DNA of 64,000 nucleotides, taken from assembly GCA_964016885.1 (NCBI GenBank), contig OZ024753.1, positions 5,890,001 through 5,954,000 on the forward strand. Direction: 5' to 3'. Position 1 is the first letter of the stretch; every line of letters starts with the position of its first letter. Positions 63,649 to 63,906 of this stretch are shown in pieces. A model generated the notes under the pieces. It made no database searches, was not told the origin of the DNA, and worked only from the letters and a program-made list of their open reading frames with translations. Both the position numbers and the translations under genes were made by a program. This stretch comes from Eledone cirrhosa. Taxonomy: Eukaryota.

Positions 63649-63654
<6 letters not shown>

Positions 63655-63906
63655 AGATTTGAATGGATACAGTTTAGTTGAAAGGAATTTATTGACACGT
63701 GTTTCTATAACAGTTACATAACATTATGTAACTGTTATAGAAACACGTGTCAATAAATTCCTTTCAACTAAACTGTATCCATTCAAATCTTTCTATTTTT
63801 CTCCGGATTACTTTTGGAACTACAACTGGAACCGTCGAGCAAACTCTACGTGAGCTGATAATCTACTGTGTGTAATATTTATATTACAACACAACGGAAA
63901 ATACTG

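Follow-up and report, generated by a model that had tools for sequence, protein, structure and literature searches.

Head-to-head stubs of Penelope-like elements in Eledone cirrhosa: two fixed arm ends and a predicted transcription start as their boundary

The window, as we call the whole stretch of 64,000 nucleotides that was analyzed, comes from the AT-rich, 3.0-Gb genome of Eledone cirrhosa and contains near its end a palindrome whose arms (63649-63721 and 63724-63796) match at 73/73 bp around a 2-nt loop. A preliminary description made from the letters alone had placed a hammerhead 3' half 16 nt from the apex, and this was confirmed (GAAA at 63740, a self-complementary stem III and GTC, with the GUC site after 63751), as was, in the sequence, the absence of CTGANGA from the palindrome; the half-motif is mirrored at 63689-63705. 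The arms had also been delimited correctly, but the tail that extends to 63906 and the flanking (TA)n had been missed. The palindrome is in fact only part of a 258-bp insertion of a Penelope-like element (PLE), at 63649-63906, which is bordered by (TA)n at both ends (Table 1). In numbering this element, designated family 1, coordinate zero is the G of GAAA, the tailless arm terminates at site B (+56) and the tailed one at site A (+166), and the focal copy is therefore written B-17 / A-16 with one inserted base at the junction. Solo family 1 copies, too, usually have their 3' end at site B, and in tandem copies the 110-nt tail leads into an open reading frame. By itself, the focal locus is an ordinary stub. 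Three contig runs compared with the window end contained family sequence and no piece spanning the apex, and an Rfam scan of the whole window gave only microsatellite- or hairpin-driven miRNA matches among the 150 of 436 that were listed. To the left of the insertion, a very high-copy repeat (63300-63605), with CTGATGA on its minus strand (63519-63525), ends at the (TA)n that took the insertion.

Table 1. Positions of the PLE stubs in the window and of their parts.
Feature	Position	Strand	Basis or remark
Left (TA)n target	63618..63648	.	sequence
Family 1 tailless arm, site B back to -17	63649..63722	-	74/74 nt identical to long copy
Single inserted base, head-to-head junction	63723	.	overlap -1
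Family 1 tailed arm, -16 to site A	63724..63906	+	183/183 nt identical to long copy
Type-I hammerhead motif, 3' half: GAAA, palindromic stem III, stem I 3' strand	63740..63756	+	sequence; full motif in kin
110-nt tail between sites B and A, right arm only	63797..63906	+	
Right (TA)n target	63907..63957	.	sequence
Family 2 stub, whole	49281..49485		
Family 2 tailed arm, ends at -15	49281-49416	minus	
Family 2 junction insert, 9-nt	49417-49425		
Family 2 tailless arm, starts at -17	49426-49485	plus	
Family 3 inverted stub, older, diverged, one-sided tail	20278..20480		

A DNA search of the animal's own genome with the focal arm returned no candidates, and copies were therefore sought by sequence patterns. 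A 20-mer near site B had 3,008 exact matches in the genome, and family 1 loci were fetched for the first 100 of these. The tandem unit of family 1 is ~3.56 kb and has a single open reading frame that encodes a reverse transcriptase (RT) followed by a GIY-YIG endonuclease. RT and endonuclease motifs are present in the family proteins P0001 and P0002, which are 39% identical to each other; in their Atlas neighbours, at 0.94-0.97, some of the members have GIY-YIG, RVT_1 or HTH_animal, and searches of Pfam and the PDB with the family proteins gave no match. In one unit (L074), a pyrimidine-rich stretch that ends in AG lies ~20 nt past site A, ahead of the start of the reading frame, and might serve as acceptor for an intron in the 5' UTR; Penelope is known for such an intron.

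The hallmarks of an endonuclease-bearing PLE were found together: an RT and GIY-YIG reading frame, partial tandems, an inverted 5'-truncated copy and a one-sided tail. Head-to-head arms, a tail at one end, a hammerhead motif in the pLTR and partial tandems are likewise described for endonuclease-bearing PLEs (PMC3846280; PMC8557442; all papers are cited from the portions of text available), in which the tail is 30-40 nt, versus 110 nt here in family 1 and about 78 nt in family 2. The motifs, read by eye and not from a tree, appear to fit membership of the Hydra clade, with which the elements share a C-terminal GIY-YIG, RWK/RWR, DKT, a CxCx5C linker, a (TA)n target, a single Cys between the GIY- and YIG-like motifs and the absence of CCHH (PMC8557442); by eye, family 2 has RWR in place of RWK. 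They differ from the clade, described in the same text as 'generally <3 kb', in a unit of about 3.55 kb and in non-canonical hammerhead motifs.

It had been predicted that non-palindromic kin would carry a stem I strand, CTGANGA and a stem II, and that the palindromes are remnants of a hammerhead-bearing retroelement, and both expectations were borne out, the element being a PLE with a type-I hammerhead motif in its kin. Non-palindromic family 1 copies have, in order, the stem I strand TTATT, CTGATGA at -99, stem II, GAAA, stem III and GUC, and this order is complete in 80 family 1 arms. The stem II region is ~90 nt long, closes on CTGTTATA and folds into a long hairpin (z about -2.1), with an A-A mismatch at its base in most copies. 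With one long copy each of families 1 and 2, the Rfam models gave no hammerhead match at E up to 10. Given the mismatch and the lack of an Rfam score, catalysis by the family 1 hammerhead is only putative; arm ends showed no clear pile-up at the cleavage site among 48 family 1 pairs. In two older copies (L159 and L160) a T rather than an A stands just before GAAA and stem II is closed, and most young copies keep the mismatch. Reading the family 1 core as type III failed on paper, without a stem I. The minimal type-I hammerheads of PLEs (PMC4209133) have the same order and a palindromic helix III, which is thought to act as a dimer; those in Eledone differ in the very long insert in stem II, the A-A at its base in most family 1 copies, a U3-A8 core in family 2 and a predicted promoter that overlaps the motif.

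The genome holds 171 head-to-head family 1 pairs with no more than 400 nt between anchors. The first 50 were fetched and 48 were kept, leaving out L119, a duplicate of L118, and L144, in which both arms run into tandems. In the range from -165 to +35 there are 88 arm ends; 42 of these fall in stem II, where 40.3 were expected (p=0.40), and 26/88 fall at the 5' edge of the ribozyme, from -105 to -93, where 5.7 were expected (p=3e-11). We refer to this edge as the wall. Both ends of a pair fell in the peak 10 times versus 3.5 expected, and wall ends are mostly partnered by ends at or 3' of the wall. When the whole genome was searched for pairs whose two ends both lie upstream of -86, 29 family 1 loci with 58 ends were recovered (L195, entered twice, and L196 are probably one insertion, yet were kept among the 58). 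Fifty of the 58 ends lie within -105 to -94; A(-102) itself has 12, -103 and -104 have none, -105 has three, and four lie beyond. The wall is located in the stem I strand that adjoins the catalytic core. A TATA box, TATAAAAA, begins at -133, 31 nt before A(-102), and ~30 nt is the usual spacing from a TATA box to a start site. An extra G was present at 4/7 assessable ends at -102, a weak signal, five more ends not being assessable.

Near-symmetric pairs, downstream of the wall, made up 29/48 versus 9.2 expected; none of the 48 has its midpoint upstream of -106, and three loci outside that set (L005, L017 and L088) are near-symmetric with a midpoint there. Among tandem family 1 copies at 30 loci, one ends at -98, 14 pass -105 and 15 stop earlier. 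The focal copy ends 85 nt short of the wall, so its exact apex was not set by a start site; it is likely a trimmed member of the wall-bounded stub class, its shortfall likely being due to joint trimming of both ends or to a shortened RNA. Six tailless arms (L039, L041, L042, L070, L071 and L080) end within -146 to -139, and the ends near -143 are possibly a second preferred stop, of which AT-rich microhomology may be the cause. A splice acceptor at -110 was considered as the cause of the wall and was rejected, as it does not fit a wall at -102.

The geometry of the focal palindrome had also been reported at 49359-49485. This locus is similar, but its core reads TTGA(T/G)AA and its element, a stub of a second family, starts at 49281. 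The tandem unit of family 2 measures 3.54 kb and contains a 786-aa frame, the protein of which is 39% identical to that of family 1, and this rules out the idea that the family is a protein-less parasite. Its long copies have the full type-I hammerhead layout with the TTGA(T/G)AA core instead of CTGANGA; the U3-A8 core, a tolerated hammerhead core swap, occurs with a complete type I order in 28 distinct segments. Twenty-two matches to CTGATGA upstream in family 2 (20 fetched) proved to be chance flanks in the loci examined. Short family 2 pairs number 9,179 in the genome and long arms at least 2,228, two counts that come from different search patterns and do not form a ratio. Both ends lie at or 3' of -22 in 50/51 pairs, a set in which L288 is counted twice and in which a natural 4-bp inverted repeat raises the number of ends scored at -22. 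The family 2 stem II loop contains the TATA-like TATTTAAA at -47 and a TYAGT that resembles an initiator and whose A is at -18; the wall (-18) is thus inside the loop, 29 nt behind the TATA-like box, and the tailless arm in the window starts one base 3' of it. The apexes stay within the loop, so that they never include a copy of the stem II 5' strand; a probable reason why family 2 stubs lack the 5' half of the ribozyme is that their RNA starts inside the loop.

In long family 2 copies the base at -19 is T or C, as the search for them required, and 3,134 family 2 arms start at A(-18) after a purine. By eye, this purine was G in 86 and A in 14 of the first 100 rows, in which eight loci appear on both strands and the upstream sequence is not conserved. 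The G in many of those 86 rows may be part of the partner arm; when only rows lacking a mirror arm were counted, there were 11 G versus 4 A (p about 0.002 against 1/3). At 20 loci picked as examples the G was on both arms in eight, on B alone in four, on A alone in four, and in four solo copies beside (TA)n. The case for a non-genomic G is built on the absence of conservation upstream, two copies found by chance and one tandem. Runs of A, up to at least 16, occur at family 2 junctions (L217:1550-1575 and loci among the purine rows), which suggests untemplated addition of A to cDNA ends. One locus (L310, G000:C1:91473212-91487414) has five tandem 3.54-kb family 2 units with an inverted copy nearby, an array compatible with a circular or repeatedly reused template.

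The preliminary description had proposed that nascent cDNA folds back on stem II of the ribozyme, which would thereby set the inversion point, and that apex positions plotted along the consensus would reveal this. The positions are indeed non-uniform, but the expected enrichment in stem II did not appear, the peak being at the ribozyme 5' edge for family 1 and, for family 2, within the stem II loop. The focal apex and most family 2 apexes do fall between the core and GAAA, and the long stem II hairpin of family 1 would suit such folding. Against it stand the family 1 count in stem II, which does not exceed expectation, the 0/48 and 0/23 junctions in which the natural stem II loop is in register (by eye), the uncopied stem II 5' strand of family 2, and the focal junction itself, where the loop is 2 nt with one inserted base. 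Folding back on stem II is largely refuted by these observations, and we regard it as highly improbable.

The walls of the two families have in common a TATA-like box ~30 nt upstream, a pyrimidine-purine step and an extra G, weak in family 1, as expected of a start site. From the DNA, we predict that the wall is likely a capped RNA polymerase II start, and that the family 1 arms stop inside the ribozyme likely because the RNA begins there and not because of the ribozyme fold. A transcription start inside the pLTR has been reported for Penelope and Chlamys-3 (PMC8557442), and in LINE-1, full-length junctions bear an extra G as a mark of the mRNA cap (PMC11702581). If the wall is a capped start, the abundant stub class copies only the 5' end of the RNA. 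Points against this reading are the weak G of family 1, the tandem family 1 copies that run past the wall, and the double-G junctions, for which short templated insertions are another reading. Because of the tandem copies beyond the wall, templates with a different start are required for long copies.

Both target ends could also be primed with the wall being a roadblock on the RNA, either bound PLE protein or the folded ribozyme core, rather than its 5' end. The passage of tandem copies beyond the wall would agree with a roadblock, as would the position of the family 1 wall beside the catalytic core and the finding that the hammerhead of one PLE cleaves only with protein (PMC11167929). It agrees poorly with the comparison of the two families, in which the position of the wall within the ribozyme differs while its distance from the TATA-like box is nearly equal (31 and 29 nt), with the pyrimidine-A step and extra G at the wall, and with the tendency of wall ends to be partnered by ends at or 3' of the wall, both in the family 1 peak nearly three times as often as expected. 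We consider a roadblock quite unlikely and return to the reading of the wall as a capped start.

One A and one B end were paired in 36/38 unselected junctions, the exceptions being one rearranged junction and one that runs into a tandem, and the same pairing was seen in 48/48 usable short family 1 pairs and 50/51 family 2 pairs. In both families, sites A and B end in TAT, which matches the target. There was no fixed order of arm length: among the 36 unselected A+B junctions the longer arm was A in 20 and B in 12, with four near-equal, and among the 48 short family 1 pairs it was A in 22 and B in 19, with seven equal. One identical junction recurs in differing flanks, three times with A longer and four times with B longer. 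In 5/36 of the unselected A+B junctions the A arm is the tail only and there is consequently no palindrome, and at four loci (L338-L341) the A arm is short while the B arm extends to the wall and has the G. The 38 unselected junctions comprised 29 with microhomology, three blunt and six with insertions. The space for a hairpin loop is 0-2 nt at some junctions, the focal one included; when one base pair was allowed, templated near-symmetric junctions had a loop of <3 nt in 4/20 and of at least 3 nt in 16/20. The two arms share the family haplotype in 29 long pairs, which indicates that they came from one source element; mixed-subfamily arms were found in possibly one or two of 60 family 2 pairs (L222 and L294).

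These data bear directly on the explanation already in the literature, where self-priming has been inferred from palindromes at PLE junctions (PMC3846280) and the tail has been attributed to endonuclease resolution (PMC8557442). In such a scheme a single cDNA from site A would reach the end of the RNA or stall, snap back and copy itself, and would be cut and joined at B, with later central deletions making the arms unequal. R2 cDNAs do snap back, often after full-length synthesis (PMC11371274), and in Eledone the haplotypes common to both arms, the excess of near-symmetric pairs and the 16/20 templated junctions with room for a loop would all accord with it. A fold-back of one cDNA, however, requires that the tailed arm contain the other, which is contradicted by the pairs in which B is longer and by the tail-only A arms. 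The lack of an A-first polarity, the B arms that are at the wall with a G while the A arm is short, the loops of zero to one nt and the solo copies, which usually end at B, also count against it, and we judge this explanation unlikely.

We think it probable instead that the two arms are reverse-transcribed separately from PLE sites A and B, run toward the cap and are end-joined head to head. Each end of a cut (TA)n target would prime reverse transcription on its own, A and B being two internal start sites primed through the TAT match to the target; both cDNAs would extend toward the RNA cap, at the putative capped start that we take the wall to be, and their 3' ends would be joined by microhomology or blunt end-joining. 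Long and tandem copies would have other templates, for which read-through of longer tandems and RNA circles are guesses. Central deletion after insertion can also make arms unequal, which weighs against separate priming, and the near-symmetric excess has no account in this reading. A more specific version, to which we would give an even chance, makes double priming obligatory, places the promoter in the hammerhead, derives the stubs from 5'-proximal priming and the long and tandem copies from a different, possibly circular, template. One complex would extend both target ends from two fixed internal sites, so that a single step would yield both the inverted repeat and the one-sided tail; a promoter inside the hammerhead would leave the 5' ribozyme copy incomplete in the transcript, and priming at 5'-proximal sites with copying as far as the cap could produce thousands of palindromic stubs.

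Two known systems resemble the proposed separate priming of both arms. The protein of the PAc Poseidon element nicks and extends both strands in vitro, is predicted to be a dimer, and starts at two internal sites that match the tail ends (PMC11167929); two internal starts that bound the tail, an AT-rich target and the extension of both strands are thus shared with the elements described here. The available text of that study does not show a single insertion that used both sites, arms joined head to head, or cDNA running off at the cap. In LINE-1 twin priming (PMC11702581), as here, both target ends are primed, joining is by microhomology or blunt, and an extra G is found at the full-length 5' end, but the LINE-1 segments are adjacent and barely overlap, and the second primer site is variable. 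Unlike in LINE-1, both starts are fixed here and the arms copy one stretch, which yields a palindrome. In the portions available, PMC3846280 and PMC8557442 explain the shape of PLE insertions by self-priming or endonuclease resolution and do not describe a cap-bounded class or an extra G. A literature search that covered few subscription papers did not find double priming or cap run-off stated for PLEs.

How inverted and tandem PLE insertions form has been named an open problem (PMC8557442). The focal feature is real and of a known element class, and the mechanism first suggested for it is replaced. With self-priming and endonuclease trimming as the published explanations, the copies in this genome turn the question into counts and provide exact positions, namely a pair of start sites, one predicted start nucleotide for each family and a G signature that either arm can carry; this family-level evidence makes PLE integration directly testable. 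If the proposed reading is true, the stubs would preserve in the genome the points where PLE transcription starts, and a substantial fraction of the short palindromes of this genome would have been copied from the 5' end of an RNA and not from its 3' end.

The window contains further inverted repeats. A third occurrence of the focal geometry, claimed at 20280-20434, did not hold up: in this family 3 stub the left arm itself contains CTGATGA (20314-20320, minus strand), which is located downstream of GAAAC, and the two arms are not symmetric. Only four exact short pairs of family 3 were found. An inverted repeat of another family, at 24943-25342, has 195-bp arms (194 matches), each with CTGATGA, stem II and GAAA; it has a one-sided extension and (TA)n, and its apex is ~85 nt upstream of the core. 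Three other long inverted repeats, at 32556-32669, 33132-33387 and 49098-49190, adjoin (TA)n and have a one-sided extension, and are probably stubs of further PLE families.
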